From Cellvibrionales bacterium (GTDB lineage: Bacteria > Pseudomonadota > Gammaproteobacteria > Pseudomonadales > Porticoccaceae): 59,582 nt of DNA. The position numbers were made by a program, and so were the translations under genes. Under the pieces are notes generated by a model. The model was not told the origin of the DNA, searched no databases, and worked only from the letters and a program-made list of their open reading frames with translations. Location of the stretch: the NCBI GenBank assembly GCA_002746135.1, contig NVWE01000003.1, forward strand, positions 168,065 through 227,646. Direction: 5' to 3'. Positions 11,461 to 51,503 of the stretch are shown one piece after another (the stretch's first letter is position 1; each line of letters starts with the position of its first letter).

Positions 11461-11503
11461 TGATGCGGCGCGAGATAAATACCTCCAAAATGCGAGATAA
11501 ATA
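11461..11503. repeat. left terminal inverted repeat with two transposase-binding-site candidates
   Basis: TGATGCGGCGCGAGATAAATACCTCCAAAATGCGAGATAAATA. GCGAGATAAATA occurs at 11470-11481 and 11492-11503, 22 bp apart. Confidence 0.8.
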
Positions 11504-12325: not shown

Positions 12326-12475
12326 CTTTCACTCTCCGCAACAATGATTCAATCTGTTAGGCTAGCCGCGCTCACGTGAGCAGGGGGTCTTGGCTAACTT
12401 GCAGCTTGTGTCTGCGGGTTGGTACCACGACTTAATGTTAGTGCATTGAGTCGTGGTGCCCTCTTTAATTTGACC

Positions 12476-13180
12476 CTACTCCAGCGCCTTCTCTAGCGCC
12501 TGCAGGTAGTAATCCATACCGTGATAACGACTCACACTCAGCCGCTTGCGGCTATAGGCTTCGCCGATCTGAATCTGAATGCCCTGGTCGACTTCGTGGG
12601 GGTGTTTGTACGACCAGAGCCAGCCACGGGGTAGCGCTGTAATCAGGTCGCTGCCGTGGCGATAGGCGATGACTTCACCAATCATGCCATGAGACCAGCA
12701 GCGCCCCACGGTTGCTCTGGGGCATCCAAAGTCGACGAGTGACCGCACGTCATAACCGCAGCTAGCCAGCATGGCAGCAAGCAAACGGGCTTCACCGCCA
12801 CCTTTAGAATGCCCTGTTACACGCACTGGATAACTGCAGTCGTAAGCCTCTACGACCAACTTAAAAACGCCTAAAGCGCCACCGCCTACTCCGCTATAAA
12901 AGCCCCTATGCACCAGGCCAATCATGGTGCGTTCTGGCATTGCTCTAATGTCATTTAGGATGTCGATAACTCGGCTTTTCATGCGCTGCCAAAAGCTATC
13001 TTCTTTGCGCCCGGCCATCTCGGTACCGCACATAGCCAGCCACAATTCGCCGTTCACTATCTCGGCCAAACACTCAGCCTCACCGGCAACAAAGGTGCTC
13101 TCGCTGTAGGCTCTTTTGGCTAATTTTGCGAGGCGAAGATGCAACCAAAGTGGCTGTGTTGATGGCGTCATTTTATTCAA
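12476..13180 (-). CDS. class-3 lipase-like alpha/beta hydrolase
   Basis: 234 aa with the nucleophile elbow VTGHSKGGGEARLLAAML, FGCPRATVG and a C-terminal HGMDYY. The start is TTG at 13180 (overlapping the tail gene stop) or ATG at 13171. Confidence 0.6.
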   Translation of the reverse strand: MNKMTPSTQPLWLHLRLAKLAKRAYSESTFVAGEAECLAEIVNGELWLAMCGTEMAGRKEDSFWQRMKSRVIDILNDIRAMPERTMIGLVHRGFYSGVGGGALGVFKLVVEAYDCSYPVRVTGHSKGGGEARLLAAMLASCGYDVRSLVDFGCPRATVGRCWSHGMIGEVIAYRHGSDLITALPRGWLWSYKHPHEVDQGIQIQIGEAYSRKRLSVSRYHGMDYYLQALEKALE

Positions 13181-37671: not shown

Positions 37672-37974
37672 TTATTTGTGGCTTAACAGATAGTCGTTAA
37701 TACGATTGAGGCTGCTATCAATGGGTTTTAGCTGTTTTGACAGGCCGTCGATTTCGGCCTCCATTTTGCCGAGGCGTTCAAACAACAGGCTGATTTGCTG
37801 GCGGGTGGGCACATGGGCCATCTGGCTTTCCATGGTGATTATTTTGCGGTTCATTTCGTCAAAGACGGTTTGCTTGACCGACTGACGATTCGCGTTAAAG
37901 GAATAAATAGCGAAGGCAATAACGACCACCCAGCGGATAAATTCACTACCAAAATACAATTCATCAGCGTTCAA
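37672..37974 (-). CDS. DUF2730-like membrane protein (Mu gp25 position)
   Basis: 100 aa with TM segment FIRWVVVIAFAIYSF followed by a coiled-coil-like tail. TTG start. Confidence 0.5.
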   Translation of the reverse strand: MNADELYFGSEFIRWVVVIAFAIYSFNANRQSVKQTVFDEMNRKIITMESQMAHVPTRQQISLLFERLGKMEAEIDGLSKQLKPIDSSLNRINDYLLSHK

Positions 37975-38158
37975 GATTCTTTCCTTCTGAGCCTATGGCC
38001 CCAGCGCTGGTGCTTTGGCCATCACACCAGCGACCAAAGGCGCGAGCCTGATTCACCAGTGCCCGGCGTAACGCAACGATTTCAGCGTGGGCCTGGCTGC
38101 ATAAGGGCAAGTCGCTCGCCTGTAGTTTTTCAAGAAGATCACCTTTCACATCGTTCAA
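37964..38158 (-). CDS. hypothetical first gene of the late operon
   Basis: 64 aa. TTG start, or GTG 9 nt further in. No motif recognised. Confidence 0.3.
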   Translation of the reverse strand: MNDVKGDLLEKLQASDLPLCSQAHAEIVALRRALVNQARAFGRWCDGQSTSAGAIGSEGKNLER

Positions 38159-38278
38159 CCCTTATCAATTGACAGCTACTCATTGCAAACAAGTGCCGTG
38201 ACAGTAGGCTAAAAACGACGGATAGGCTTTTGAACGGGGGCAAAATCAACACCGCGCGCGCAGGTGTAATCTGGCGAT

Positions 38279-38797
38279 ATGAGTAATATTTCTCTAAGCC
38301 CAGACGCTATTCTTGAGCAAACTAACCTCACCGGGGCAGTTGCCGATATCCAGGATAGCCCGGCCAGTCCTGACGCCAATTGGCTTACCGCGCCAGGCAA
38401 TAATGTAGCCACTACGGTACGCACGTCGCTGCCAACACCACCCAACAATTTGAACGCCGGTGCGGCCTTACAACAATTTCGCCTGTGGGTGCGCAAAACA
38501 AACCATTCCACTGATCCGCTGATGACAGTGGAGCTATACGAGGATGGCGCACTAATAGCCACGCTGGCCACGGGGGCCGGGGTCTCTAGCATCAGCGGCC
38601 AACTGCTGACATACACCTGGGACGCAGCCCTTTTAAGCGCCATTAGCGGCGTTGATGTGGAGTGCCGAATCAGTGGCACCTCTGGTGGGGGCAAGCCTAC
38701 CAACCGTGCGGCCCTTGAAATTGGCGCTATGGCCTGGGATGCCGATTATGCGGTCAGCACCGGCCCCACGTTGCTGTTAGCCCTGGTACCGGCATGA
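38279..38797 (+). CDS. hypothetical protein, cassette gene 1 (beta-rich, structural-like)
   Basis: 172 aa. First of seven tightly packed plus-strand ORFs. Confidence 0.5.
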   Translation: MSNISLSPDAILEQTNLTGAVADIQDSPASPDANWLTAPGNNVATTVRTSLPTPPNNLNAGAALQQFRLWVRKTNHSTDPLMTVELYEDGALIATLATGAGVSSISGQLLTYTWDAALLSAISGVDVECRISGTSGGGKPTNRAALEIGAMAWDADYAVSTGPTLLLALVPA

Positions 38798-38807
38798 GCA
38801 GCCACGC

Positions 38808-39320
38808 ATGAGCACGGTCTATCGCGGCGCATTCGCTACCCTCTGGATTACCCTGCAGGCCAATGAAGCCCTGGGCATTCTCGACGCTGACTATTTAGAA
38901 GATTACTTCGGCAACGACAGCCAGGTATCGCTGTATCACATCGCTAGCGATACCCATTACCCGGTGTTGATGCTCGACCAGCCACTGGTAACACCGCTGA
39001 TCCCCTATGACATATTCAAGGGCCAAATAGCCATGGCGAGCCTGCCTGACGGGGCTTACCAGGTGCGCGGCCGTTGTCGTGATGTGGGCGGCAATTACAC
39101 CATCTTAAGCGCCGTACAAAGCCCCCTTGGCGGCGAGCAGGTGCTGGCGATGGAATTTAACATTCAGCCGGGGCAAGGCTTGCACTTCACCGTGCAACTG
39201 CCCTTTGGGCTGATTCGCATGGGTCTGGATATGGGCACGCTGGATCGCCCGACATTGCCCCATCATTTACTCAACCGTGACCAGCCAATGGCTGAATTAC
39301 GCACTGTACTGGAGCGCTAA
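38808..39320 (+). CDS. hypothetical protein, cassette gene 2
   Basis: 170 aa, starting 10 nt after gene 1. Confidence 0.5.
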   Translation: MSTVYRGAFATLWITLQANEALGILDADYLEDYFGNDSQVSLYHIASDTHYPVLMLDQPLVTPLIPYDIFKGQIAMASLPDGAYQVRGRCRDVGGNYTILSAVQSPLGGEQVLAMEFNIQPGQGLHFTVQLPFGLIRMGLDMGTLDRPTLPHHLLNRDQPMAELRTVLER

Positions 39321-39631
39321 TGGTCTACACCGACGACAACGGTTTTACGCTGGATTTTACCAGCCAGTTTGACCTCACCGCCATGACCAGTGTGCGCATG
39401 TTAATTCGTCGCCCCAGCAACAGCGTGGCGGCCTACGATTTTGCCCTGGCTGAATTCAATACGGTGAACGTGGGCGGTGTGCTGAGCTACTTGGTGCGCC
39501 CTGGGGATTTGACGGTGGATGGCGATTATTTGTTTCAGGTGATTGCCAAAGATGCGAATTCTGACGTGGCGTTTAAGCCCTACACCCTAAAAGTTGAACG
39601 CCGCATTGCCGGTAATGGGTGGAATATATGA
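39320..39631 (+). CDS. hypothetical protein, cassette gene 3 (Ig/beta-sandwich-like)
   Basis: 103 aa. Start overlaps the previous stop (TAATG). Confidence 0.45.
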   Translation: MVYTDDNGFTLDFTSQFDLTAMTSVRMLIRRPSNSVAAYDFALAEFNTVNVGGVLSYLVRPGDLTVDGDYLFQVIAKDANSDVAFKPYTLKVERRIAGNGWNI

Positions 39632-39777
39632 GCGTGATAAGCGTGCGCTGCAGCCAGTGCAATAAGTCCTTTTCAATCAACCCGGCAGCGGGCCAGCCCG
39701 TCGCGCCAGTGTGCCCCAAGTGCGCGCCACGCATTAACAAAACCATTGTTAAAAAGGAGAAAAACCATGCGCTTTGA
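39628..39777 (+). CDS. 49-aa zinc-ribbon protein, cassette gene 4; not in the ORF track
   Basis: My translation: MSVISVRCSQCNKSFSINPAAGQPVAPVCPKCAPRINKTIVKKEKNHAL. Two CxxC pairs. ATGA overlap with gene 3. Confidence 0.45.
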   Translation: MSVISVRCSQCNKSFSINPAAGQPVAPVCPKCAPRINKTIVKKEKNHAL

Positions 39778-39982
39778 AAGCATTCACGAGATCCCCAAGA
39801 CCCTGCGCAGAATCGGCGGCACGCAGCTGTCGATTGACCAAATTGAAGCACTGCTCGACGAAGCAGACAGCAGCGAATTGCCCAATGGTGCCGCACTGGC
39901 ACAGGCGAAACGCGATTTTATAACCCGCCACAAGCCCGTGGGCGGGCACTGGGTTGCCACTAACACAGGAGCAAGCGCGTAA
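39767..39982 (+). CDS. hypothetical 71-aa protein, cassette gene 5
   Basis: The preferred ATG is at 39767, with SD aaggag 7 nt upstream; the track ORF starts at 39746. Confidence 0.45.
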   Translation: MRFESIHEIPKTLRRIGGTQLSIDQIEALLDEADSSELPNGAALAQAKRDFITRHKPVGGHWVATNTGASA

Positions 39983-40899
39983 TGTTGACACTCAATTTAG
40001 CAGGCGGCTCACAGGCCGACCCTATTCTCGCAGGCCTGGGCCTGAAGCTGGTGGGCGCAGGCTCATCATTCGACATCGCCACGGTGAACGACGCGTTTAT
40101 TGATGCCGCCACTGGGGCTGGTGTAACCACGGTGAAAGCCAGCCTTACCCCAGCGGCGACGGTGGTGACGGCGGCCTCTACCGGCAGCTATAACGACACC
40201 ACCAAAAGCTGGACGATGAGTAGCACCACCGGCCTGACAGCAGGCGACCCCATTTACCTGAGCCATGCCAGCATTACCGATGGCATTTACTACCTTGGCA
40301 GCGTGGTGAATGGCACCGACTACACGGTGGAGGATGCCAACGGCGTCAACCCCATGGACGGCGGCGGCGTCCAGAGCAGCATTTTCTATCAGGTGGCCTG
40401 GGCCTGGGTGGGGGCTGGTGACGCGGTACCCATTAACCACAACAGCGCAGGCGACCAAAACTTTTGGAAATTTCAGGCCGACGATGGCGCGGTAAGCTCC
40501 ATCGCCGAAGACAGCTTTTGGGTGGCCGACAGCCCCGCTGGCGCTGCCTTTATTCAGATTGAGGGCGGCGACTACAGCGGCCAAACCGTGGCCGACAATT
40601 TGCTGACACTGGTGATACTCACCGGCTGGGCGAACAATGGCGGCATTAGCCATGTTGAAATGGCCAACCATTCGGTGCAAACGGTTAACAATTTCATCTG
40701 GACATCGGGCGGCGGCACTGGCGAAGTGGCCCTGGCCACGGCCGAAGGTGGCCTGACCGCATCGGCAGGCGACGGCAACAAGTACGGCCAGCTGGTGTTT
40801 AAAGCCAAAGCGGGCAGCGCCTATGACGTAACGGCCGATATTGACGTGATTGTCGATAGCACCGGGCCATTGTTGGTATTAACTCTGGTGGCGGCGTAA
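39982..40899 (+). CDS. hypothetical 305-aa Gly/Ala/Thr-rich protein, cassette gene 6 (fibre/structural-like)
   Basis: Start overlaps the previous stop (TAATG). Beta-rich composition, no enzymatic motif seen. Confidence 0.5.
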   Translation: MLTLNLAGGSQADPILAGLGLKLVGAGSSFDIATVNDAFIDAATGAGVTTVKASLTPAATVVTAASTGSYNDTTKSWTMSSTTGLTAGDPIYLSHASITDGIYYLGSVVNGTDYTVEDANGVNPMDGGGVQSSIFYQVAWAWVGAGDAVPINHNSAGDQNFWKFQADDGAVSSIAEDSFWVADSPAGAAFIQIEGGDYSGQTVADNLLTLVILTGWANNGGISHVEMANHSVQTVNNFIWTSGGGTGEVALATAEGGLTASAGDGNKYGQLVFKAKAGSAYDVTADIDVIVDSTGPLLVLTLVAA

Positions 40900-40904
40900 T
40901 TACC

Positions 40905-41228
40905 ATGAAAATTGACATCGCCCAACTCGCGTTTATCGACCCCACCCTGCGCGACATATTGCTGCAGGCGGAAAAAGCCACCGGCTTTGAATTCACCATC
41001 ACCAGCCTGTACCGCATTGGCGACAAGGGCGTGCACGGCACACTGCCACTGCGGGGGGCTGACCTGCGGGTGCGCCTACCCGCCGCTGGCGAGGTGATGG
41101 CGGATTATATTAATGCGCGCTGGCAGTACGATAGCGAGCGGCCCGCTATGCGCTGTGCGGTGCTGCACGGCATGGGGGCTAATTTACATTTGCATGTGCA
41201 GGTGCATCCCAGGACTGGGAGGGCTTGA
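40905..41228 (+). CDS. small peptidase M15-like protein (tentative cell-wall hydrolase), cassette gene 7
   Basis: 107 aa. TSLYRIGDKGVHGTLPLRGADLRV and HLHVQVH loosely resemble the SxxR / H..D / H zinc-ligand pattern of M15 peptidases. Confidence 0.35.
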   Translation: MKIDIAQLAFIDPTLRDILLQAEKATGFEFTITSLYRIGDKGVHGTLPLRGADLRVRLPAAGEVMADYINARWQYDSERPAMRCAVLHGMGANLHLHVQVHPRTGRA

Positions 41229-41232
41229 GGGT

Positions 41233-41781
41233 TTAGCAGTCACGCAAGATAGCCAACAATTTAGTCCGCTCAGCACTATCCATCGTCAGCCTGTGCTTTG
41301 CTTTAACTAACCACCACCGGGCTGCGTACTCGCAATGATACCTTGCCAGTGGTGGCATCCACTTCGCAGGATCTTTACTTCCCTTAGACCGATTGGCCCT
41401 TGCGATGACCGGGAGCAGGTTTTCAGGGTCATTAGCAAAGGCTCTCTTTTTGGCCCGCGTCCAGTGCTCACCGCCAGAGATATGCGCCTCTTTTAGCGGC
41501 ACGATATGGTCAATATCTAACCGCCCTGCATTAATAAAAACATCACCCGTGTAGGGGCCAATCCATCGACCTGAAACCACTCGACAACCCTGTAGAGTCA
41601 GCGGCCCTGCATTTTTTGCTATGAGTATTTCAGCCCGTGTGTTTTGGCAGTCGCCATCAACATCAGCCCAATAAGGCCAGTCCAGCCGATCATAAGAGCC
41701 CGCGAAAGCGACCAGGGGGATGAGTGCTAGTAGAGCGAGCTTCAAGGCTAGGGCACGACTAAAACCGCTTTGATGGCACAA
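41233..41781 (-). CDS. exported DUF1524 / His-Me finger (HNH-like) nuclease
   Basis: Signal peptide KLALLALIPLVAFAG/S, then DIDHIVPLKEAH and NDPENLLPVIARANRSKGSKDP. The start is uncertain: TTG 41781, or TTG 41745 just after the upstream stop. Confidence 0.6.
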   Translation of the reverse strand: MCHQSGFSRALALKLALLALIPLVAFAGSYDRLDWPYWADVDGDCQNTRAEILIAKNAGPLTLQGCRVVSGRWIGPYTGDVFINAGRLDIDHIVPLKEAHISGGEHWTRAKKRAFANDPENLLPVIARANRSKGSKDPAKWMPPLARYHCEYAARWWLVKAKHRLTMDSAERTKLLAILRDC

Positions 41782-42113
41782 ACAAAGTTAGCCAGGTCGC
41801 TTTTGCTCGAGCCGTCAACAAGATCAAACCATTTGGTCGGCCTAATTGTCATGGCGGAAAGCGACTCACCATAACCCAGCTCGCGCATTTTCGTCGTCTT
41901 ACAGTTTGTTTCTGTTTTTGAATAGGATGCGGACAAAGCGCTAATGCGACTGCTGCTTGCGACAACAACATCACCTTTTATCGCCATTGTTAGCAGGTAA
42001 TAATTAGCGTTCTCAACCCGGCTTCGCGGGATAAGTAGTTCGGCATGGACTAGCACCGGGGTGTTTGCCGCAATGGCTAATAGTCCAATTAGTACGACTT
42101 TACACAGTCTCAT
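41748..42113 (-). CDS. exported 121-aa hypothetical protein
   Basis: Signal peptide MRLCKVVLIGLLAIAANTPVLVHA/E. ATGA overlap with the repressor stop. AT-rich. Confidence 0.45.
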   Translation of the reverse strand: MRLCKVVLIGLLAIAANTPVLVHAELLIPRSRVENANYYLLTMAIKGDVVVASSSRISALSASYSKTETNCKTTKMRELGYGESLSAMTIRPTKWFDLVDGSSKSDLANFVCAIKAVLVVP

Positions 42114-42601
42114 TGTTTTTCCTCTTTTGGCTTATCACTAGCGGCCTGTTGAGCCAGGGCTTTTGCAGACACGTCGAGTGACAGCTTGCCAACACCATTA
42201 CTACGCCGATAGTTGTCGACCAGGTTTAGCTCTCGACCGCTGAGATAAACCGGCGAAGGCGGCTCGGCCACGCTGCCCCCAGGCTCATGTTTCACGACTT
42301 CATACGCTTCTAAGGCCAGATTTGTTAGTTCGCCACCCTCTGGCTCCCTATCAACACTGAGGCTTAGAGCTGCGGCGAGCTTATCGTCAATCGCTTTTGG
42401 CAGGCGGTTGCCAGTGAGGATGTAGGCGATATCGACCCCGGCTTTACTGATAGCTAGCAAATAGTCCGCGTTCGGCGAGCGATCCCCCTTTTCATAATTG
42501 ACCTGTGAACGCCTGTTCACACCAGCCAGCTCGGCAAATTCACCCTGCCCATAGCGCAGCCTGTTTCGCTCTTCTTTTAATCGATCACAAAATAAAGCCA
42601 T
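42110..42601 (-). CDS. prophage repressor (XRE-family HTH)
   Basis: 163 aa. LRYGQGEFAELAGVNRRSQVNYEKGDRSPNADYL is an HTH_3 motif. Divergent from the early operon. Confidence 0.75.
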   Translation of the reverse strand: MALFCDRLKEERNRLRYGQGEFAELAGVNRRSQVNYEKGDRSPNADYLLAISKAGVDIAYILTGNRLPKAIDDKLAAALSLSVDREPEGGELTNLALEAYEVVKHEPGGSVAEPPSPVYLSGRELNLVDNYRRSNGVGKLSLDVSAKALAQQAASDKPKEEKQ

Positions 42602-42619
42602 ACAAGCCCCGACAAACTA

Positions 42620-42648
42620 TTGACAAGCGCACGTTTATGCGCAATTAT
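42620..42648 (+). promoter_or_regulatory. candidate early promoter (TTGACA-17 nt-AATTAT) with an embedded operator-like inverted repeat
   Basis: TTGACA at 42620-42625 and AATTAT at 42643-42648. GCGCA (42627-42631) / TGCGC (42638-42642) lie inside the spacer. Confidence 0.45.
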
Positions 42649-42690
42649 GAGAACGTAAATACACAACAGCACACAGAAGAGGCGACCCCC

Positions 42691-42927
42691 ATGAACAAAT
42701 CCAGCCCCAACACACCCCTGCCGTATCCGCAAACTCCAGAAAGCGCACGCGCCTGGTTCGTTGATCACGGCATTTGCCAAACAGCCTGGTCAAAATCCCT
42801 GGGCATATCTCGCGCAGCCGTGGTCGATCTTATTCATGGCCGCCGCAAAGGGCATCGTGGAGAAGGCCATCGCGCCGCCATCTTGCTCGGCCTAAAGCTT
42901 GACCCCTCTGCAAGCCAGGCTGCTTAA
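42691..42927 (+). CDS. Ner-like small DNA-binding protein
   Basis: 78 aa from ATG 42691, with SD gaagagg. AWFVDHGICQTAWSKSLGISRAAVVDLIHG. First gene of the early operon. Confidence 0.5.
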   Translation: MNKSSPNTPLPYPQTPESARAWFVDHGICQTAWSKSLGISRAAVVDLIHGRRKGHRGEGHRAAILLGLKLDPSASQAA

Positions 42928-43035
42928 GCATGCATTCAACACCGCTCATTATCCACAATGAAACGCTATTGCCTATGGGCAATCTTGTCTTTTGTTTGGA
43001 AGCCCTGCAATGCCCCCCTTTACGGGAGATGTCCA

Positions 43036-43521
43036 ATGCCTCGGCGTAATTGGAAACGGCTTGCCCCGACATCACTACGCCAGGCGATGGAGTTGTGCCT
43101 GGAGTATGCCCGCAGCAAGCACAACCGCTCGGTAGATGGCGTTGCCGACCTGATGGGTCAGTCGAATAAATGGAGCCTTTATAAGTGGATGGAGAACGGC
43201 CGCTTGCCCAGTATTTTGATTCGCCCCTTTGAGCATGCCTGCGGTTGCAGCTATGTCACCCAGTACCTCGCGACCAGCGCTCACAAATTATTAATCGATA
43301 TACCCAGTGGCCAGCCCGCAGGCGAGGCCGATTTACTGGCCTTACACAGCGACTTTAATGCCGCCGTTGATTTGCTGGCGGGTTTCTACGGCGGCAAAGC
43401 CGAAGCCGATGAAACCCTGAGCGCACTGACCGAGGTAATGAGCCAGATTGCCGGGCACCGCGAGAATGTAAGCAAAGCCATGGCCCCGGAATTGGGGTTA
43501 TTTGAAGGAGAGACACTATGA
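43036..43521 (+). CDS. hypothetical early protein (HTH-like N-terminus)
   Basis: 161 aa from ATG 43036. VDGVADLMGQSNKWSLYKWMENGRLP. Confidence 0.4.
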   Translation: MPRRNWKRLAPTSLRQAMELCLEYARSKHNRSVDGVADLMGQSNKWSLYKWMENGRLPSILIRPFEHACGCSYVTQYLATSAHKLLIDIPSGQPAGEADLLALHSDFNAAVDLLAGFYGGKAEADETLSALTEVMSQIAGHRENVSKAMAPELGLFEGETL

Positions 43522-44096
43522 GTGCATTTACCCCCACCCAACCCAGCGCCCTGACTGCCCGCGACAGTTTGTTTATGTCGACCGATGGCCAGCCTTATGT
43601 GAGTAGTCGAGCTATTGCTGAGCGCTTTGGCAAACGCCATACCCATGTGCTGAGAATTATCAAAAAGCTGTTAGCTGACATACAAGCTACCGAGTTCGCC
43701 CAGCCCAATATTGGGCTGGGGTGTCACCATAAATCAGGGTTTGATCGGACAAATTTTCGTCCGATCTCTTACCCGGATGCCAACGGTCAACAGCGCCCTG
43801 AGTATCACCTCAGCCACGATGGCTTTGCTCTGGTGGTCATGAGTTTTACCGGCCCTGAAGCCCTGGCCTGGAAGATTGCCTTTATCGAAGCCTTCAAAGC
43901 CCTTGAAGCAGAACTCAAAGCGAAAGATCAGCTCTTTCTCGCTGCCCTGGACAAAATACGACCCTGCCTGCGCATTGTTGTCGAAGGCGGCGAGCAGGGT
44001 TTGAACAGGGCGCAGATAGGCGCACAACTGGATAAATCACTGGCAGCAGTGACCTACCACCGGGGCCAGGCACGAAAGCTGGGCTTGCGAGCATGA
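43518..44096 (+). CDS. Rha-family phage regulatory protein
   Basis: 192 aa. DGQPYVSSRAIAERFGKRHTHVLRIIKKLL is the Phage_pRha motif. Confidence 0.7.
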   Translation: MSAFTPTQPSALTARDSLFMSTDGQPYVSSRAIAERFGKRHTHVLRIIKKLLADIQATEFAQPNIGLGCHHKSGFDRTNFRPISYPDANGQQRPEYHLSHDGFALVVMSFTGPEALAWKIAFIEAFKALEAELKAKDQLFLAALDKIRPCLRIVVEGGEQGLNRAQIGAQLDKSLAAVTYHRGQARKLGLRA

Positions 44097-44413
44097 GCAA
44101 CCTATCCAAACCCACAGGCCGCACCAGCAATAGCGGCGGTCGCGTATTACGCGTTATGGCAGCCCTACAGGGTCGCACCCTCAGCGGGGTGAGTAATGGC
44201 GAGCTGGCGAAAGCGCTGGGTGAAAGCACGGCCACTATTAACCGCTGTTGCAACACGCTAATTGCCGAGGGTTACGCCCAGAAGCTGGACAACGGTAATT
44301 TTTGCCTGAGCATTAAATTGCTGCAAATCGCGCAGGCCCACAGTACGGAATTTGCCCGCATGCAAGACCGCATGGGGGAGATCAACCAACGGGTGCTCGC
44401 ACCCTCACGTTAA
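44093..44413 (+). CDS. winged-helix (IclR/MarR N-terminal-like) DNA-binding protein
   Basis: 106 aa. VLRVMAALQGRTLSGVSNGELAKALGESTATINRCCNTLIAEGYA. Confidence 0.5.
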   Translation: MSNLSKPTGRTSNSGGRVLRVMAALQGRTLSGVSNGELAKALGESTATINRCCNTLIAEGYAQKLDNGNFCLSIKLLQIAQAHSTEFARMQDRMGEINQRVLAPSR

Positions 44414-44458
44414 ACACTAGCCGCCCGGCGGCCAATAACAACGGAAAAGGAAAGCACC

Positions 44459-44758
44459 ATGGGAATTAAAATATCTAAGCAGGTGAAAGCCCTTCTAAAA
44501 CGACGCCAGGAGCAATGGCTAAAGGACAGGGGCCATCGCGCCCTGGTACGGCTCGACCGCTATATCGAGTTAATGAGCAACACGCCGGGCGGTGCCACGC
44601 CGCTGCAGGCCGAGAAGCTGAAGGGCTTTGTTGAGGCGCTGTGTTTTGCCGAACTGCTAAGCGAGGCGGATGCAGATATCTATACCAGCGTGATTGATGG
44701 TGTTGTGCAAACCGAGGCGCTGGTGAACCCGTTTTTGACGGAGGAGTTGGCGTCGTGA
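44459..44758 (+). CDS. hypothetical early protein
   Basis: 99-aa ORF in the operon. No motif recognised. Confidence 0.35.
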   Translation: MGIKISKQVKALLKRRQEQWLKDRGHRALVRLDRYIELMSNTPGGATPLQAEKLKGFVEALCFAELLSEADADIYTSVIDGVVQTEALVNPFLTEELAS

Positions 44759-45108
44759 GTGAGCCAAAAAAACTCACCAAACAAGATGAAACCACCGCAA
44801 GCCATGTCATCGATATGGTTGCAGGGCTTGTGGTATTGGGCATGGATCTGGAGACGCTGAGTATCAACGGGCAGCGAGGTATTGCGTTACGCGGAATTGG
44901 TGGGAGCGACACTGACTTACAAACGTTGATCGATCTAGGTTCGATTTTTATCAGCATGATTAACTCTGGAAAGACCGTAGAAGAAGCTGTTTGTCAATTA
45001 ATCATAGATGGATACCTTGTTCATTTAACCCCAATTGCAGAGCGTCTTATTGAATTATCCGATGCAGAGTCTGATGCAAAGTTCGCCAACCTTGAGAAAA
45101 AAACATGA
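44755..45108 (+). CDS. hypothetical early protein
   Basis: 117 aa, overlapping its neighbours by 4 nt on both sides. Confidence 0.35.
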   Translation: MSEPKKLTKQDETTASHVIDMVAGLVVLGMDLETLSINGQRGIALRGIGGSDTDLQTLIDLGSIFISMINSGKTVEEAVCQLIIDGYLVHLTPIAERLIELSDAESDAKFANLEKKT

Positions 45109-45995
45109 GCAAACCACCCGAAGATAACGACACACCCAAAGCACCCCAGGACATCGTTTCCCAAATTGAAGAGCAGCACAGTGATGCCGCTGAGCACTCT
45201 GAGCAGGTGATGGCCATTTATGGTGACGGGCTGCCCTATGAGCAGTCGCGCCTAATGAATGAAACCCGGTTTTACTTGACGCAATCCGCTGACAGCATGC
45301 TAGAGGCTGGCAAGCGCCTGATCATCATGAAAGAGCACGAGCCCCATGGCACGTTCCAGCACCTGGTTGAAAACGACCTGCAGATAGAGCCGAGGCTTGC
45401 CCGCAAAATGATGCAGGCTGCCGTTAAATTTCTTTCCCCTCGATTAGCGTCAAAACGGAATACGTTTTCCCTTTTGGGGAAAAGCAAAATTTACGAGCTG
45501 ATGCTTGAGGACGAAGATGACCTTGAGGAACTAGCAGAAGGCGGCACTTTCCTGGGCATGGACATGGACGATATCGAGCGCATGTCGTCTCGCGAACTGC
45601 GCAAAGTATTACGCGATCGCCGCGCCGATGATGAGGCCAAAGACCGGGTGTCTTCCGATCAGCGCCAAACCATTCAAGACCTGCAAACCCAATTACAACG
45701 GGCTGCCCAGCTACCCCCTGACGAGATCGACAGGGAGTTGCGCGAGGAGGCTGGCAAACGTGCATGGGCCGCCGAAACAGGCTTGAGGGGGCAATTGCGG
45801 CCCGCCCTGCAGGCGCTAAGCGATAACGGCAATACGAACGGCATTGATGTCTCTGCCTGCATCGCGGGGTTTGTGAACCAGGTCGAACTGGCCCTGGCGG
45901 ATATTCGCCTGGAGCTGAACATTATGCCAAGCGAGTCTCTGGACGATGGCATGGACTGGGATGTGCCACCGTCTGCAAGCCCTGAAACCCACTAA
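45105..45995 (+). CDS. DUF3102-like early protein
   Basis: 296 aa. SMLEAGKRLIIMKEHEPHGTFQHLVENDLQIEPRLARKMMQAA resembles DUF3102, which is common upstream of Mu-type transposases. Confidence 0.45.
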   Translation: MSKPPEDNDTPKAPQDIVSQIEEQHSDAAEHSEQVMAIYGDGLPYEQSRLMNETRFYLTQSADSMLEAGKRLIIMKEHEPHGTFQHLVENDLQIEPRLARKMMQAAVKFLSPRLASKRNTFSLLGKSKIYELMLEDEDDLEELAEGGTFLGMDMDDIERMSSRELRKVLRDRRADDEAKDRVSSDQRQTIQDLQTQLQRAAQLPPDEIDRELREEAGKRAWAAETGLRGQLRPALQALSDNGNTNGIDVSACIAGFVNQVELALADIRLELNIMPSESLDDGMDWDVPPSASPETH

Positions 45996-46011
45996 ACGAA
46001 GGCCTATAACA

Positions 46012-47811
46012 ATGCAGTCAACACTGAATGGCGGCCTGATTGAGTACCTGCAAAGCGTGGTACAGGCGGCAGATGATGCGGGCCATGGTGGCAAAACAGC
46101 GGTGTACCAGGCCGCTGCCGACAAACTAGGTATTGGCAAAGCAACGCTATACCGCAAGATTGGTGAGATCGTGATGCCGACACAACGCAAGCAGCGTAGC
46201 GATGCGAGTGCAACGGCGCTGACCCTTGACGACGCGCAGCATATTAGTGCTTTTCTGATTGAAAGTTATCGGGCTAATGGCAAGCAACTCAGCTCACTCG
46301 AGAATGCGGTTGAGGTGTTACTGAGTAATGGCCGCATTACCGCTGGCCGGGTGGATAAAGCCACAGGGGAGTTTGCGCCTTTATCCATTAGCGCTATTCG
46401 CCGGGGCCTTGAAGTTTATGGCTTGCTGCCGAAACAGTTGAGCAGGCCCTCGCCCAAGGTGCGACTGGCTAGCCAGCACCCCAACCATGTCTGGCAAATA
46501 GATCCCTCGTTATGTGTGCTGTATTACCTGCCACGCAAGCAAAGCGAAGGCCTGCAGGTAATGGATAAGACGCAGTTCTACAAAAACAAACCGGCCAATA
46601 TTCGCAAGATTGAGAAAGAGCGCGTCTGGCGTTATGTGATTACCGACCACGCCAGTGGCTGGGTGTTTGTGCATTACGTGCTGGGGGCTGAGAGCGGCAA
46701 AAACTTGGTAGACAGTTTTATTGCCGCCACCCAGCGCCGTGACAACGACCCGGTGCACGGGGTGCCGCTGAACGTAATGGTTGACCCCGGCAGCGCGAAT
46801 ACCGGGGCGATATTTCAAAACCTGTGTAGAGCATTAGAAATAGAGGTGCTGGTTAATCGCCCCGGCCAGCCCTGGGCAAAGGGGCAGGTAGAGCAAGCCA
46901 ACAATCTGGTGGAATGCGATTTTGAACATCGCCTGCGCTTCTTAAAACAACCCCCCACCACGCTTGATGAGATTAACCATTACGCCGGGCAATGGATGTG
47001 CCGCTTTAACGTGCGCAACAAACACAGCCGCCATGGCAAAAGCCGCTTTGCGGTATGGCAAACCATTTTACCGGATCAATTACGGGTGGCACCACCAGCC
47101 CAGGTGATGCGCGAGCTGGCCACGACGCGGCCAGAACACCGTCTGGTGTCGGTAAATTTAACCATTAGCTTTAAAGGTAAGACCTATAGCGTGGCCGAGG
47201 TTGAGGGCGTGATGGTGGGCGAAAAGCTATTAATTACGCGAGACCCCTGGGGTGCTGACAATAGCGCCCGTGTGGTTGTCACCGATGAGGATGGGCGCGA
47301 TGTGTTCGTACCCCTGGAAGCGGAAGAGTACGACGCCTTCGGCTTCCCCACCACGGCGGTGATGATTGGTGAGGGCTACCGGGGCATGAAGGATGGTCAG
47401 ATAGATATTAACCGCAAGGCGGTTGAGCGCCTGGCGATGGGGGCGGATACGGATGAGGCGGCAGAGAAGGCCCGCAAGAAGCAGACCGTGCCGTTTAACG
47501 GTGAGATTGACCCGATGTTGCCGATTACGAATACGCCGCTGCCGGACTATTTGCCGCGCCGTGGTACGGCGATGGATGTGGCGTCACCGATGATTGAGAT
47601 TAAGCCCTTGGGTCATGTGGCGGCGGCGAAGCGCTTGACGATGATGCTGGGCAATAAATGGCAGGGTGCGAGGCACTTTAGCTGGCTGCAGGCCGAGTAC
47701 CCGGCGGGTGTGATGGAGGATGAACTGGCGAGTATCGCCAGGCAATTGGCCGGGGCTGGCCCCGGTCATTCAGGGCCATTGGATGTGGCTCGAAAAACAG
47801 GAGGTGGATGA
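46012..47811 (+). CDS. Mu-type DDE transposase (A)
   Basis: 599 aa from ATG 46012, with SD gaagg. N-terminal HTH (GIGKATLYRKI). DDE-core candidates HVWQIDPS, NVMVDPGSAN and KGQVEQANN. Confidence 0.85.
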   Translation: MQSTLNGGLIEYLQSVVQAADDAGHGGKTAVYQAAADKLGIGKATLYRKIGEIVMPTQRKQRSDASATALTLDDAQHISAFLIESYRANGKQLSSLENAVEVLLSNGRITAGRVDKATGEFAPLSISAIRRGLEVYGLLPKQLSRPSPKVRLASQHPNHVWQIDPSLCVLYYLPRKQSEGLQVMDKTQFYKNKPANIRKIEKERVWRYVITDHASGWVFVHYVLGAESGKNLVDSFIAATQRRDNDPVHGVPLNVMVDPGSANTGAIFQNLCRALEIEVLVNRPGQPWAKGQVEQANNLVECDFEHRLRFLKQPPTTLDEINHYAGQWMCRFNVRNKHSRHGKSRFAVWQTILPDQLRVAPPAQVMRELATTRPEHRLVSVNLTISFKGKTYSVAEVEGVMVGEKLLITRDPWGADNSARVVVTDEDGRDVFVPLEAEEYDAFGFPTTAVMIGEGYRGMKDGQIDINRKAVERLAMGADTDEAAEKARKKQTVPFNGEIDPMLPITNTPLPDYLPRRGTAMDVASPMIEIKPLGHVAAAKRLTMMLGNKWQGARHFSWLQAEYPAGVMEDELASIARQLAGAGPGHSGPLDVARKTGGG

Positions 47812-47812
47812 T

Positions 47813-49015
47813 ATGAGAACTGCTTTGAAGTTGAAAAAAACACTGCGCCTGGCGGGTGCTGGCCAGACCGAGTTGGCAGGCCATTTGGGGATTAGTCAAG
47901 CGGCGGTGTCGTTGCTAATTAACCATAACCAATGGCCAAAACGTCGGGCGCGTGACGATATAGAGAGTGGCATTACGGCGTTTTTAAGTGATCGCGGATG
48001 CTATGAAAAGAACCTTTTTGCCACTGGGCAAGGGTCTGGAATAAAACCGCCCCATGGCAGTGGGGCGGGGTTTGATACCACTAAAAAGCAGCATCAAGAG
48101 TCCCAGGAGGACGAGCCTATGTTACTACGAAAGCAGAATTTATTACCAGCCACGTGCAAGGCCTTTGGTTTGTTTCGCGACCCCTTTGCGGAGCTGCAGG
48201 AGGCTAATGATATGTGGCTTAGCCCGGATATTCGCTATGTGCGAGAAGCGATGTGGCAGAACGTGAGGCACGGTGGTTTTCTGGCTGTTGTCGGTGAAAG
48301 TGGCGCGGGTAAAAGCACGCTGCGCCGCGATTTGGCGGAGCGTATTACGCAGGAGAATGAGCCGGTAATTATCATCGAGCCTTATGTATTGGGGGCTGAG
48401 GATAACGATATAAATGGCAAGACGTTGAAGGTTTCACATATCGCTGAGGCGCTGCTGAGTGCCGTGGCACCGCTGGAGAGTATTAAGCGCAGCAGTGAGA
48501 TGCGTTTTGCGCAAATGCACCGGGCATTGAAAGATTCTCATCAGGCGGGATATCGCCATTGTTTGATTATTGAGGAGGCGCATAGCCTGCCGATCCCGAC
48601 GCTAAAGCACTTGAAACGGATTCTTGAATTAGAGCTGGGTTTCACCAAGCTGGTGAGCATTATTCTAATCGGCCAGCCGGAATTATTGAGCAAGCTGAGC
48701 GAGCGCAATGCCCAGGTGCGCGAGGTGGTGCAGCGCTGCGAGGTGGTGACGCTGTCGTCTATTGAGCCGAGCAAGCTGGGTGAGTTTTTGGCCTATCGAT
48801 TGGGCCGTGGCGGCAAGCAGTTAGCCGAGGTGATTGATGAGCCTGGCATTGCGGCTTTGGCGCAGCGACTGGTGCTGCCGGGGCGGGCTGGGCGCAATGA
48901 GGATGTGTCGCAACTCTACCCCCTGGCCGTTGGTAATTTTATGTTGGCGGCGATGAATTTGGCGGCGCAGTTAGGCTCGCCCGTGGTGACCGCTGACATT
49001 GTAGGAGGTGTGTGA
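47813..49015 (+). CDS. AAA+ transposition ATPase (MuB/ExeA-like) with N-terminal HTH
   Basis: 400 aa from ATG 47813, with SD caggagg, 2 nt after the transposase stop. Walker A GESGAGKST and Walker B CLIIEEAH. Confidence 0.8.
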   Translation: MRTALKLKKTLRLAGAGQTELAGHLGISQAAVSLLINHNQWPKRRARDDIESGITAFLSDRGCYEKNLFATGQGSGIKPPHGSGAGFDTTKKQHQESQEDEPMLLRKQNLLPATCKAFGLFRDPFAELQEANDMWLSPDIRYVREAMWQNVRHGGFLAVVGESGAGKSTLRRDLAERITQENEPVIIIEPYVLGAEDNDINGKTLKVSHIAEALLSAVAPLESIKRSSEMRFAQMHRALKDSHQAGYRHCLIIEEAHSLPIPTLKHLKRILELELGFTKLVSIILIGQPELLSKLSERNAQVREVVQRCEVVTLSSIEPSKLGEFLAYRLGRGGKQLAEVIDEPGIAALAQRLVLPGRAGRNEDVSQLYPLAVGNFMLAAMNLAAQLGSPVVTADIVGGV

Positions 49016-49314
49016 TGACCGCGATGGTAATGGTACGTGCAGGCAACCAACAGAATGCCCATATAGCCGTGGGTATGGCGGCGGTGGCTGAGGTGGTAAC
49101 GGCGCTGGCGATTCAACAAATTACGGTGTTGAGCATCAGCATTGGCGCTAGTGCCCAGCCTGTTATGTCGTTGCAGTTTGATGAGCGTTTAAAAGAGGCG
49201 CTGGGTGACGGTGTGGCTGTAAAAATGCAGGGGCAAGCTGCTGGCATGTCCACTTATATAAAACACCTTGGCGGTTGTTTGCTGGAGTGGCAGCAAGCGG
49301 ATGTGGTGCATTGA
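49012..49314 (+). CDS. hypothetical early protein
   Basis: 100 aa with a 4-nt overlap with the ATPase gene. Confidence 0.35.
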   Translation: MMTAMVMVRAGNQQNAHIAVGMAAVAEVVTALAIQQITVLSISIGASAQPVMSLQFDERLKEALGDGVAVKMQGQAAGMSTYIKHLGGCLLEWQQADVVH

Positions 49315-49315
49315 T

Positions 49316-49513
49316 ATGAACCCCTTTCTGAGAGAACAAGTAGGCCGAGGCGCGCAGGTGGTTGATGTGGTTGGCCGCTGTGATGCGGTGGCTGAGTTTT
49401 CATTACAGCAGTGTCGAAATGCCTTATTTGTGCCTGATTTACAGGCCACGGTACAGCAGGCCATTGGGCGACGTATACGTTATTTAAAGAAGCAACCGGA
49501 GAACAGAATATGA
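49316..49513 (+). CDS. hypothetical early protein
   Basis: 65 aa from ATG 49316; the track ORF starts at 49268. Confidence 0.35.
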   Translation: MNPFLREQVGRGAQVVDVVGRCDAVAEFSLQQCRNALFVPDLQATVQQAIGRRIRYLKKQPENRI

Positions 49514-50145
49514 GTGTTGATATTGATGAAAGGCAAGCCATTCCTGATGGCTTTAAAGCGGACAATAAAGGCCGGTTGGTGCCAGTTGATTTGATCAAGC
49601 CTATCGATATGGCGCGCGATGATTTGGTTAGCGACCTGGTAATTGGCGCCAAGTTGGTGAAGGAACATATCGAGGATTTCAAGTCGGCAGCGATGGGTGA
49701 CATTGGTGCATTTATTGAGTTGTCTGCTGAAAAATACGGTGTCAAAAAGATGGGCGGCAGTAAGGGCAATGTAACCCTGTACAGTTTTGACGGGCGTTAC
49801 AAAATTCAACGTTCAATCGCCGAGTTTTTGGTTTTTGATGAGCGTTTGCAGGTGGCGAAGGTGCTGGTCGATGAGTGCATTCATGCCTGGACTGAGGGCA
49901 GCAGTTCGCAGATTCGCGCGCTTATTGATCATGCCTTTCAGGTGGACAAAGAGGGCAAGGTGAACACCAGCCGAATACTGGGCTTGAAACGCCTGGATAT
50001 TAAAGATGCGAAGTGGCGAGAGGCGATGCAGGCGATTACCGATGCCATGCAGGTGGTGGGTAGTAAGACCTATTTGCGCTTTTATGAGCGGATGGGTGAG
50101 TCGGATCAGTATGAGCCGATTGCGCTGGATATGGCGGCGCTTTGA
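49510..50145 (+). CDS. DUF3164-like protein
   Basis: 211 aa. Position and general sequence resemble DUF3164, which is common in Mu-like early regions. Confidence 0.5.
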   Translation: MSVDIDERQAIPDGFKADNKGRLVPVDLIKPIDMARDDLVSDLVIGAKLVKEHIEDFKSAAMGDIGAFIELSAEKYGVKKMGGSKGNVTLYSFDGRYKIQRSIAEFLVFDERLQVAKVLVDECIHAWTEGSSSQIRALIDHAFQVDKEGKVNTSRILGLKRLDIKDAKWREAMQAITDAMQVVGSKTYLRFYERMGESDQYEPIALDMAAL

Positions 50146-50146
50146 G

Positions 50147-50395
50147 ATGGGGATTTCACGCCTCACAGCTTTCACAATTGCTGAAAGAGACGATCTTATA
50201 TATGACTCTTCTGGCCCAGGTGAAAATGGAAAATATGCGGGCTCGATACACATGCCAAATGGCAGATTATTACTGAACACTACCCCGGTATTTAACTCCC
50301 CAGTATTAGCCATTAAGCACCTGTTTGAATTAAAAGATCGATGCAAGGATTTGGTTATGGCGAAAACAAGCCCGCAAGTGGATATAAAAGCATGA
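50147..50395 (+). CDS. hypothetical 82-aa protein (AT-rich early moron)
   Basis: ATG at 50147, right after the DUF3164 stop. AT-richer than its neighbours. Confidence 0.35.
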   Translation: MGISRLTAFTIAERDDLIYDSSGPGENGKYAGSIHMPNGRLLLNTTPVFNSPVLAIKHLFELKDRCKDLVMAKTSPQVDIKA

Positions 50396-50583
50396 GCGAT
50401 GTCGCTGACAGAGCCAACGATTTGGCCGATTTGCAACGTGACCAGGCGCTGGAAAAGGTGCCGCGCTATGCGGGCGTTTCTGCTGCTTATTGTGAGGATT
50501 GTGATGAGCAAATACCGGATGCTCGACGCACGGCGATACCGGGCGTGACGCGGTGTGTTGTGTGCCAGCAGGTTATTGAATGA
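50392..50583 (+). CDS. TraR/DksA-family C4 zinc-finger protein
   Basis: 63 aa from ATG 50392 (ATGA overlap). CEDCDEQIPDARR...TRCVVCQ. Confidence 0.65.
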   Translation: MSDVADRANDLADLQRDQALEKVPRYAGVSAAYCEDCDEQIPDARRTAIPGVTRCVVCQQVIE

Positions 50584-51047
50584 GTAAAGCAGCTGCGAAT
50601 CCGACCCGTTTACGTTTGATAAAAATCATTCATGTGGCCCGTCGTGAGTTGGGTATGGATGAGTCAACCTATCGTTTAATGCTGGGCAATTTGCCGGGTT
50701 TGGATGGTGCGACATCAAGTGCAAAATTGACCATTCCACAACTACGGTTGGTTTTGGATGGGTTCAAAAAGCGGGGCTTTAAGGTGCGTCCAAAAGGCGG
50801 CCCTGGTAAAGCAGGCACTCGAAAAATGGCTGATGATAATCAGTCGAAATTGATCCGCCATTTATGGTTGGAATTACACAGCGCGGGTGCTGTGCGCGAC
50901 CCTTCTGAACAGGCCCTGGCGAAGTTCGCTGGCAAGATGACGAAGGTGGGCTCGCTGCAATGGTTGAGCTCGCAGCAGGCGAGCCAGGTGATCGAGAATC
51001 TGAAGAATTGGTTGCACCGAATTAAGGAAGGAGCAGATGATGAGTAA
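50580..51047 (+). CDS. GemA-like regulatory protein (DUF1018, Mu gp16)
   Basis: 155 aa. LIKIIHVARRELGMDESTYRLML...LTIPQLRLVLDGFKKRGF. Confidence 0.65.
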   Translation: MSKAAANPTRLRLIKIIHVARRELGMDESTYRLMLGNLPGLDGATSSAKLTIPQLRLVLDGFKKRGFKVRPKGGPGKAGTRKMADDNQSKLIRHLWLELHSAGAVRDPSEQALAKFAGKMTKVGSLQWLSSQQASQVIENLKNWLHRIKEGADDE

Positions 51048-51390
51048 TGATTCACCGATGGAAGCATTACGCCATGAACTGCTTTCAGATGTGGCCGAGC
51101 ATACGACATTAATACTCAAGCAGCATGGCATTGATACCGATGTCGCTGACCAGGCTGGCTGTTCTATCAGCAATCATCTCGCCGAGCATTGGGGTGGCCA
51201 GGTGGTGAGCATTCCAAAAAACTATTTATACAAGTTGAGCCAACGTGACCAGGTCATCTATGAGGAGTTCAACGGCACTAATCACTCTGCGTTATCACGC
51301 AAGTATGATGTGTCGGTGAGGGCTATCTATAAGATCATCACGAGAGTACGAAAAAGAGAGGTCGATAAGCGTCAAATCCAGATGTTTTGA
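51037..51390 (+). CDS. Mor-family transcriptional activator
   Basis: 117 aa. WGGQVVSIPKNYLYKLSQRDQVIYEEFNGTNHSALSRKYDVSVRAIYKII is the Mor/C HTH pattern. Last gene before the right tip. Confidence 0.75.
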   Translation: MMSNDSPMEALRHELLSDVAEHTTLILKQHGIDTDVADQAGCSISNHLAEHWGGQVVSIPKNYLYKLSQRDQVIYEEFNGTNHSALSRKYDVSVRAIYKIITRVRKREVDKRQIQMF

Positions 51391-51460: not shown

Positions 51461-51503
51461 TATTTATCTCGCATTCCCTTATAATTTATCTCAACCTAGA
51501 TCA
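51461..51503. repeat. right terminal inverted repeat with two transposase-binding-site candidates
   Basis: The reverse complement reads TGATCTAGGTTGAGATAAATTATAAGGGAATGCGAGATAAATA, 29/43 identical to the left end with identical site spacing. Confidence 0.8.

Follow-up and report, generated by a model that had tools for sequence, protein, structure and literature searches.

Do two exported proteins encoded directly behind a prophage repressor gene work together, or are they unrelated passengers that happen to share a slot? The question is raised by a stretch of 59,582 nucleotides from a marine Cellvibrionales bacterium of the family Porticoccaceae (GenBank assembly GCA_002746135.1, contig NVWE01000003.1, positions 168,065 to 227,646), hereafter called the window and numbered from its first letter. 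Three closely packed open reading frames (ORFs) on its minus strand encode an XRE repressor, a 121-amino-acid (aa) protein with a signal-like leader (sp121) and a His-Me finger nuclease of the DUF1524/GmrSD_C type. A first reading, made from the letters of the sequence only, had proposed that the last two form an exclusion or toxin/immunity module expressed in the lysogen. The explanation favoured here, which we consider reasonably probable, is that the locus is a lysogeny module carrying two unrelated morons, namely an exported non-specific nuclease acting on free DNA and sp121, which acts separately.

The repressor-linked trio

The three genes are arranged as follows.

42601..42110, minus strand: XRE/HTH_3 repressor, 163 aa, first gene of the presumed operon, in the prophage lysogeny module
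42113..41748, minus strand: sp121, 121 aa, with a signal-like leader and a predicted Protein E-like fold, first moron
41745..41233, minus strand: stand-alone DUF1524/GmrSD_C nuclease, 170 aa, second moron (the listed ORF has 182 aa and begins at a TTG at 41781)

The TGA of the repressor gene and the ATG of sp121 share the letters ATGA at 42113-42110, which agrees with the same-strand succession and overlap described in the first reading, and an AGAGGA Shine-Dalgarno sequence stands 7 nt upstream of the sp121 ATG. The N-terminal part of the repressor matches the Pfam helix-turn-helix (HTH) family HTH_3 (E 3.5e-5) and the repressor/regulator families phrog_8, phrog_4 and phrog_3 of PHROG, together with a weak NCBIfam match to the RstR family. 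The protein is 66% identical to the repressor of a related phage (locus L009), its ratio of non-synonymous to synonymous divergence (dN/dS) is 0.13, and its gene is transcribed divergently from a Cro/Ner-like gene.

The start of the nuclease gene had to be moved. All close homologs start where the listed ORF has an internal TTG, at 41745, and the gene is accordingly placed at 41745..41233; its start is almost certainly this TTG, which gives 170 aa and the N-terminus MKLALLALIPLVAFA/GSYD. The same start position is used by close homologs, as a TTG in the near-twin locus L013 and as an ATG in L007, L002 and L006, and the N-termini of the homologs P0001 (MKRALLLLIPLVAFAG...) and P0002 (MKLALLAIIPLVVFAD...) match it as well. 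The TTG lies 2 nt past the TAG of sp121 and is preceded by no Shine-Dalgarno sequence. Of the nuclease ORF as first described, the His-Me/DUF1524 assignment and the intact catalytic residues were retained, and the start codon was not.

The base composition of the cargo is likewise milder than had been claimed. The G+C content is 47.8% for sp121, 52.2% for the nuclease gene and 52.8% for the repressor gene, against a prophage mean of 55.1% (standard deviation 3-4%) and 47-49% in the host flanks. The AT-richness of the two cargo genes is real and was overstated, since they stand at 48-52% vs 55% and sp121 is the only gene of the trio that falls within the lowest ~5% of phage windows.

Two cargo genes that occur apart

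Whether the cargo genes form a pair was judged from their company elsewhere. Nuclease loci were sampled from cellular genomes (80) and from IMG/VR (70), together with flanks of up to 8 kb in both directions, and the loci, 159 overall, were searched with profiles of both families. The sp121 family was present in a single one of the 159 nuclease loci, the near-twin L013, and the nuclease in none of 53 other sp121 loci; 4 IMG/VR, 40 metagenome and 5 further sp121 loci contained no nuclease. Nor does the nuclease keep any other conserved neighbour, the largest cluster of ORFs within 2.5 kb being found at 8 of 159 loci. The 106 genes that directly adjoin it received mixed PHROG annotations (sigma factor/HTH, RIIA/RIIB, integrase, terminase, tail and others). 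The idea of a conserved nuclease neighbour was rejected on these two grounds, the size of the neighbour clusters and the heterogeneity of their annotation. As for the searches, blastn against INPHARED returned only short matches to the cII region, and tblastn of sp121 and single-protein scans of IMG/VR and metagenomes returned nothing; it was the alignment-based scans that found relatives. The informative loci are these.

L013: gene order as in the window; nuclease 90%, sp121 ~82% and the neighbouring gene orf107 83% identical; near-twin
L009: repressor gene (66%), a 94-aa membrane protein gene and an sp121 homolog (68%), without nuclease and without orf107; cro 79%, cII 70% and orf305 87% identical
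L007/L008: nuclease (69%) with an unrelated 120-aa gene before it and a holin gene after it
L001-L005: nuclease (61%) as the last gene of a structural operon, adjoining an integrase gene
L011: sp121 homolog (57%) between the tail assembly chaperone and tape measure genes of another siphovirus

Because the two genes co-occur only in L013, and because L009 keeps sp121 without the nuclease, the cargo genes are read as independent. On this comparison of gene neighbourhoods, the nuclease and sp121 appear to be independent mobile morons stacked by chance in one lineage, not a functional pair. The related phage L009 holds different genes downstream of its repressor gene, from which a moron slot at this position is recognized; the first reading had likewise placed the genes as cargo, and their place in the lysogeny module, co-oriented with and packed against the repressor gene, bears this out. 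The usual marks of morons are seen here, namely variable presence in related phages, a G+C content of 48-52% vs 55% and the same nuclease family at other moron positions. The proposed two-protein module, with the pair in 1 of 159 nuclease loci and the nuclease in 0 of 53 other sp121 loci, did not survive this comparison.

Synonymous divergence (dS) between the window and L013 is uneven, at 0.14 for the nuclease gene, 0.41 for sp121 and 0.47 for orf107, with small substitution counts, and hints that the nuclease gene may have been exchanged or acquired more recently. In L009, the 94-aa protein encoded at 3681-3965 between the repressor gene and the sp121 homolog apparently has 2-3 transmembrane segments. 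By its sequence it is a candidate for another repressor-linked moron, and a more classical superinfection-exclusion candidate.

A stand-alone DUF1524 nuclease with a leader

The nuclease matches the Pfam family GmrSD_C (DUF1524, PF07510) over residues 87-176 with E 1e-9 and 38.8 bits, against a cut-off of 23 (residue numbers follow the 182-aa ORF). Its motif segments read DIDHIVPL...FANDPENLL...ANRSKG, and GmrSD_C was matched by all 34 of 34 aligned homologs. Among 120 homologs, the catalytic residues H92, N117 and K133 are present in 120, N130 in 119 and D91 in 118, and the window protein has them all. A hydrophobic N-terminal leader is found in 105 of these 120 homologs. In the alignment, the leaders end with A/V-x-A-like motifs directly before the start of the conserved domain at Y-x-R-x-x-W, the corresponding junction of the window protein being AFA/G.

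The cysteines point in the same direction. C45 and C66 occur together in 117 of 120 homologs, and C150 and the C-terminal C182 are jointly present in 89, jointly absent in 13 and discordant in 11 (Fisher p 2e-9, uncorrected for phylogeny). This pattern is as expected of two structural disulfides, putatively C45-C66 and C150-C182, in an extracytoplasmic protein.

The AlphaFold model of the nuclease is confident, with a predicted local distance difference test (pLDDT) score of 92.5. Its top five fold matches in the PDB are all periplasmic or extracellular Endonuclease I enzymes, including those of V. salmonicida (2pu3) and V. cholerae (2g7f) and Vvn (1ouo and 1oup), with probability 1.0, template-modelling (TM) scores of 0.45-0.48, root-mean-square deviations of 6-7 Å and ~175-181 aligned columns. 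Cas9 HNH domains come lower, and the GmrSD enzyme BrxU far lower, at rank 19. A search of sequence profiles against the PDB gave no solved-structure relatives of the nuclease beyond weak matches to Cas9 HNH domains.

The family is under purifying selection in the comparison of the window with L013 (dN/dS 0.38). It is large and mostly cellular, with at least 594 matches in contigs of a one-genome-per-species set; hosts include Shewanella, Alcanivorax, Marinobacter, Nitrosomonas, Halobacteriovorax, Dehalococcoidia and Nocardioides, and a further 70 matches lie in viral contigs of IMG/VR. Many relatives of 220-290 aa (P0008, P0010, P0015-P0017, P0035, P0044 and others in alignment A2) have, after the leader and ahead of the nuclease domain, an additional segment rich in His, Gly and Cys (HGGGxDSxGGHxNRKTGEYHCH...). 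This segment, which the window protein lacks, may be a metal-binding module. NCBIfam provides no name for the nuclease and none for sp121. The best PADLOC match of the nuclease had E 0.058, with none below E 0.05, and the repressor gave only HTH noise; membership of the trio in a defence system was rejected for want of a meaningful PADLOC match.

In the searchable literature, DUF1524 figures almost solely as the nuclease part of defence enzymes of the GmrSD, BrxU and SspE types, with a mention of "putative extracellular nucleases" within the DUF1524 group (PMC5714182). A Type IV restriction enzyme of the GmrSD type was considered for the window nuclease and rejected. The protein has the DUF1524 domain only and no DUF262 neighbour, a DUF262-only gene lies 38 kb away in host DNA, unlinked, and the protein begins with a leader ending in AFA/G.

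sp121, a small protein with a Protein E-like fold

The N-terminus of sp121 reads MRLCKVVLIGLLAIAANTPVLVHA/ELLIPRS, and its hydrophobic leader stops exactly where the conservation of the family starts. A signal-like leader is present in 113 of 120 members. Taken with the leaders of the nuclease homologs, this upholds the earlier suggestion that both cargo proteins look Sec-exported. The junction VHA/ELLIPRS contains no lipobox, and no family member has a cysteine at the junction, so sp121 is not taken for a lipoprotein. The family is tight, with 280 clusters at 50% identity among 1.84 billion representatives (E up to 1e-3), a mean column identity of 50% and, as invariants, C71, C112 and a GSSKSDLA motif; its dN/dS, from a codon-aware alignment, is 0.17-0.25. 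The places where members were found are the end of an Acinetobacter prophage, a Shewanella chromosome and the interior of tail modules.

In the AlphaFold model (pLDDT 87.8), a four-stranded sheet is packed on a C-terminal helix. Foldseek matched it in the PDB to chain B of 9m3l (TM 0.50) and to H. influenzae Protein E (6gus, TM 0.47), both with probability 1.0, and the best matches in BFVD include phage proteins annotated "Surface-adhesin protein E" (TM 0.51-0.61). A literature search for "TdeM", the name attached to 9m3l, found nothing. At the sequence level, the Pfam family Adhesin_E scores 13.1 bits with the window protein, below the cut-off of 23.7. Weak, sub-threshold matches occur in 19 of 35 members, the best with E 0.0066. 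No solved-structure relatives of sp121 were found by sequence, and an exact look-up of the window's own copy of the protein gave no record. The label DUF2511, put by one source on a Shewanella homolog, was rejected, as no Pfam DUF2511 match appeared in 35 members at E up to 10. Overall, sp121 may be described as a recurrent phage moron with a modelled Protein E-like fold, predicted to be exported.

The window protein departs from its family at near-invariant sites, with SSSRIS for the consensus LHKRVG, and ENANYY, with a one-residue deletion, for GDKGKYY. This divergence is partly common to its closest relatives, in L013 and L009. The only recurrent neighbour of sp121 is a small protein starting MGLNFRKSFKLAPGVRLNVSKKG..., seen at 7 loci (L173-L177, L095 and L196) and not in the window; read by eye from a sequence motif, it seems DUF4236-like.

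Expression signals and the prophage setting

The trio shares its surroundings with the following genes and sites.

42602..42684: divergent regulatory region between the repressor gene and the Cro/Ner-like gene
42685..42927, plus strand: Cro/Ner-like HTH gene, first early gene (phrog_925, E 2.9e-20; 79% identical in L009)
40905..41228, plus strand: orf107, 107 aa, convergent on the nuclease gene, variable cargo neighbour
45946-47811: transposase A gene, in the early operon
47720-49015: transposition protein B gene, in the early operon

A consensus scan placed a strong promoter-like site for the divergent early genes on the plus strand at 42620-42648 (TTGACA-17-AATTAT). On the minus strand, the repressor promoter has a weak candidate found by eye (TTGCGC-17-AATAGT, 8 of 12 positions), which would yield a near-leaderless repressor messenger RNA. 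Within the trio, the consensus scan of the minus strand detected neither a sigma-70-like promoter nor an intrinsic terminator, an arrangement that is compatible with a single transcript and is no proof of one. On the far side of the trio, the stop codons of orf107 and of the nuclease gene are 4 nt apart (41228-41233), and no terminator-like structure was found between the two genes; transcription from each side should therefore run antisense into the other gene. The product of orf107 has no family match in Pfam, PHROG or NCBIfam; the gene is 83% identical in L013 and missing from L009.

The surrounding element is a transposable, Mu-like siphovirus prophage of ~40 kb in the chromosome of a marine Porticoccaceae bacterium, and the trio is its lysogeny module. 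This assignment is made because transposase, Mu-F, terminase and tail genes are present, because candidate end repeats were found and because cellular genes flank the element. Besides the transposition genes, the phage genes include a Mu-F-like minor head protein, a portal, a large and a small terminase, a 974-aa tape measure and large tail proteins, and the early region encodes Cro/Ner-like, CII-like and Rha proteins and one further regulator. A 12-nt motif, GCGAGATAAATA, occurs in two copies with 22-nt spacing at 11470-11503 and, inverted, at 51461-51493, where the outermost copy, on the right, is degenerate and was recognized by eye. These copies are probably the transposase-binding end repeats of the prophage. 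The span between them is close to 40,262 nt, the length of a contig in which an identical 121-aa protein is encoded. The flanking cellular genes include prfC, Dus, glutathione S-transferase, a major facilitator superfamily transporter and a Ser/Thr kinase; the clusters at 90% identity to which they belong bear the names Porticoccaceae or "Candidatus Reddybacter".

The layout of the element is divergent. Head and tail genes run leftward (12476-37382, minus strand) and the early transposase operon rightward (42685-51390, plus strand), toward the nearer end. In Mu, by contrast, the two modules are collinear. Six plus-strand genes between the modules (37795-41228) have no family matches. At the left end of the prophage (11561-13180, minus strand), a DNA methyltransferase gene (phrog_56, E 1.7e-94) and a gene for an esterase/lipase-like protein (phrog_21992) are likely to be further cargo. 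In the host DNA, a low-G+C island (1959-3778, minus strand; 37-41%) encodes a protein of 358 aa with DUF262/GmrSD_N only (1959-3035), then an FRG-domain protein. The region resembles a defence island, and of a GmrSD-type enzyme it encodes the N-terminal half but not the DUF1524 half. Scans of the window for tRNA genes and Rfam families gave nothing.

Probable lysogenic-conversion cargo and its rivals

The steps that we infer, from co-transcription through export, disulfide formation, nuclease activity and choice of substrate to a physiological effect, would run as follows. Two accessory genes would have accumulated downstream of the repressor gene, and read-through from the repressor promoter would express them in lysogens at a low and constitutive level; this read-through is the reason for expecting little of either product. 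The sp121 gene has a good ribosome-binding site; the nuclease gene probably depends on re-initiation at its TTG and would give only small amounts of nuclease. Exported through Sec and oxidized in the periplasm, the nuclease would cleave free nucleic acid in this compartment or in the surroundings of the cell, and sp121 would act independently of it. The lysogen would then turn over extracellular DNA (eDNA) and biofilm matrix, release nucleotides and, if naturally transformable, take up less intact DNA by transformation. Candidate benefits, among which sequence cannot decide, are keeping DNA out of the cell, guarding the prophage against loss through recombination, turning over eDNA and releasing nutrients. 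There are precedents. The signal-peptide DNases of C. jejuni prophages, whose activity is non-specific and inhibited by ethylenediaminetetraacetic acid, put an end to natural competence and clear away eDNA and biofilm (PMC4372405), and Endonuclease I enzymes, inactive when reduced, lower the transformation rate (PMC5714182).

Several points weigh against this explanation. Expression in the lysogen is predicted from sequence, with a weak by-eye candidate for the minus-strand repressor promoter, and the nuclease may be translated very poorly because of its TTG start and missing Shine-Dalgarno sequence. Hydrophobicity and AXA motifs were the basis on which export and cleavage were predicted. TM scores to Endonuclease I stay below 0.5, and the likeness may be limited to the beta-beta-alpha-metal core and helices; none of 34 members matched Pfam Endonuclease_1 at E up to 1. 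For this reason the link to Endonuclease I is treated as "works like" and not as "member of". No characterised or experimental exported DUF1524 member was found in the searchable literature, and the substrate could for that reason be DNA, RNA or modified DNA. Elsewhere, moreover, the nuclease lies beside lysis genes or in lytic-phage contexts with RIIA/RIIB neighbours, so its benefit is perhaps not specific to lysogens.

These contexts elsewhere make a role at lysis a serious rival. The nuclease would serve the phage by cutting viscous host DNA or eDNA for virion dispersal, or by recycling nucleotides. Homologs stand directly upstream of a holin/lysis cassette (L007/L008), beside RIIA/RIIB in large, probably lytic phages, and in jumbo Vibrio phages, where they are annotated as HNH endonuclease, and the family is common in IMG/VR contigs. 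In the window, however, the gene lies on the repressor strand, convergent with and outside the neighbouring plus-strand operon, and a Sec signal peptide would be superfluous for a protein freed by lysis; we consider this role unlikely here. Nutrient scavenging, by which the exported nuclease would let a marine lysogen use dissolved DNA for phosphorus, nitrogen or carbon, is given a similarly small chance. Extracellular DNases do serve the scavenging of carbon and phosphate (PMC4372405), the host is a marine Porticoccaceae, and the family is abundant in marine and environmental metagenome-assembled genomes (Alcanivorax, Marinobacter, Nitrosomonas, Dehalococcoidia). Against it, no phosphatase, nucleotidase or Pho-box was seen beside the nuclease gene, and the TTG start and missing Shine-Dalgarno sequence suggest low expression. 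Scavenging and the cargo explanation are not mutually exclusive.

The remaining alternatives would join the two proteins in one function. A joint barrier to superinfection or DNA entry, in which sp121 disturbs ejection or uptake and the nuclease destroys DNA in the periplasm, would be analogous to T4 Imm together with host Endonuclease I; excluded T4 DNA is reportedly degraded by the periplasmic Endonuclease I. Both genes lie in the repressor operon, both products have export leaders, the nuclease start is coupled to the sp121 stop across a 2-nt gap, and the pair is retained in the near-twin L013. The pair is nevertheless confined to one narrow lineage, with no co-occurrence in 158 nuclease and 53 sp121 loci, and L009 has sp121 but no nuclease gene. 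No nuclease-based mechanism is named in a recent review of superinfection exclusion, and most tailed phages pass their DNA across the periplasm within a channel, so that we hold such a barrier to be quite improbable. That this lineage recruited both proteins into a periplasmic DNA-entry barrier, with sp121 perturbing an envelope step and the nuclease destroying exposed DNA, is a shade less probable again; if true, it would be the first prophage-encoded nuclease-based system of superinfection exclusion or anti-transformation, and would provide the first function for exported stand-alone DUF1524 nucleases. A toxin/immunity or inhibitor pair, with sp121 neutralising the nuclease until needed, is highly improbable, even though the genes are adjacent and translationally close and the small protein comes first. 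Immunity genes co-vary tightly with their toxins and co-occurrence here is essentially nil; hundreds of nuclease homologs stand alone among heterogeneous neighbours. Both proteins have signal peptides, and there is no genome in the periplasm to protect; an exported, disulfide-dependent nuclease needs no immunity protein, and the inhibitor or immunity partner of the first reading is given up. A Protein E-like fold, besides, is no known nuclease-inhibitor fold.

Significance of the locus

Seen as lysogenic-conversion cargo, the locus is ordinary prophage cargo and not a new defence architecture. Prophage-borne exported nucleases are a kind already known; what is new is a nuclease family without a characterised member in the searchable literature. 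Such nucleases affect transformation, biofilm matrix and nutrient use and thereby shape gene flow, and the locus adds a marine Mu-like example with a stand-alone, signal-peptide DUF1524 nuclease. A single characterised member would annotate the whole family, and would show whether DUF1524, known from cytoplasmic Type IV restriction, also works in an Endonuclease I-like manner in the periplasm.

Comparison with known systems

For sp121, the counterparts are H. influenzae Protein E (Adhesin_E) and the phage proteins annotated "Surface-adhesin protein E", which have the same predicted fold of a sheet on a C-terminal helix. sp121 differs in falling below the Pfam threshold, in being shorter and in having no lipobox, and adhesion is not inferable for a marine bacterium.

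The nuclease has its catalytic GmrSD_C domain in common with GmrSD, BrxU and SspE, which combine DUF262 with DUF1524. Enzymes of this type are large, cytoplasmic, dependent on nucleoside triphosphates and modification-sensing, with an N-terminal DUF262, whereas the window nuclease has 170 aa, a signal-like leader and no DUF262. Its best structural matches are instead the Endonuclease I enzymes (Vvn, V. cholerae Dns/EndA and E. coli EndA). [quoted passage not shown] The motif of the window nuclease is, however, DH...N...N of the DUF1524 type, without an Endonuclease_1 match, and Endonuclease I genes are chromosomal housekeeping genes, not phage cargo.

Among prophage-borne enzymes, the S. pyogenes DNases Spd1 and Sda1 are secreted His-Me finger nucleases encoded by prophage morons that alter the phenotype of the lysogen. 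Streptococcal nucleases are treated under group 5 of a published survey (PMC5714182). Unlike the window nuclease, the S. pyogenes enzymes are of the Endonuclease_NS type, belong to a Gram-positive host, are encoded beside the lysis module or attachment site and serve evasion of animal immunity.

In C. jejuni, the element CJIE1 is a Mu-like prophage. Its DNase gene dns/CJE0256, together with CJE0566 of CJIE2 and CJE1441 of CJIE4, resembles the window nuclease gene in being a prophage accessory gene whose product has a signal peptide (PMC4372405). The C. jejuni DNases are expressed from the integrated element, and their effects on natural transformation, eDNA and biofilm are tested functions (PMC4372405), whereas the window nuclease is known from sequence. 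They belong to an epsilonproteobacterial host, linkage to a repressor gene is unreported for them, and the likeness drawn here is one of description. The sequence-only reading had been aware of no described exclusion system made up of an exported DUF1524 nuclease and a small exported partner. This still applies to the pairing, but the broader kind, an exported nuclease carried by a prophage, is already represented by the C. jejuni prophage DNases.

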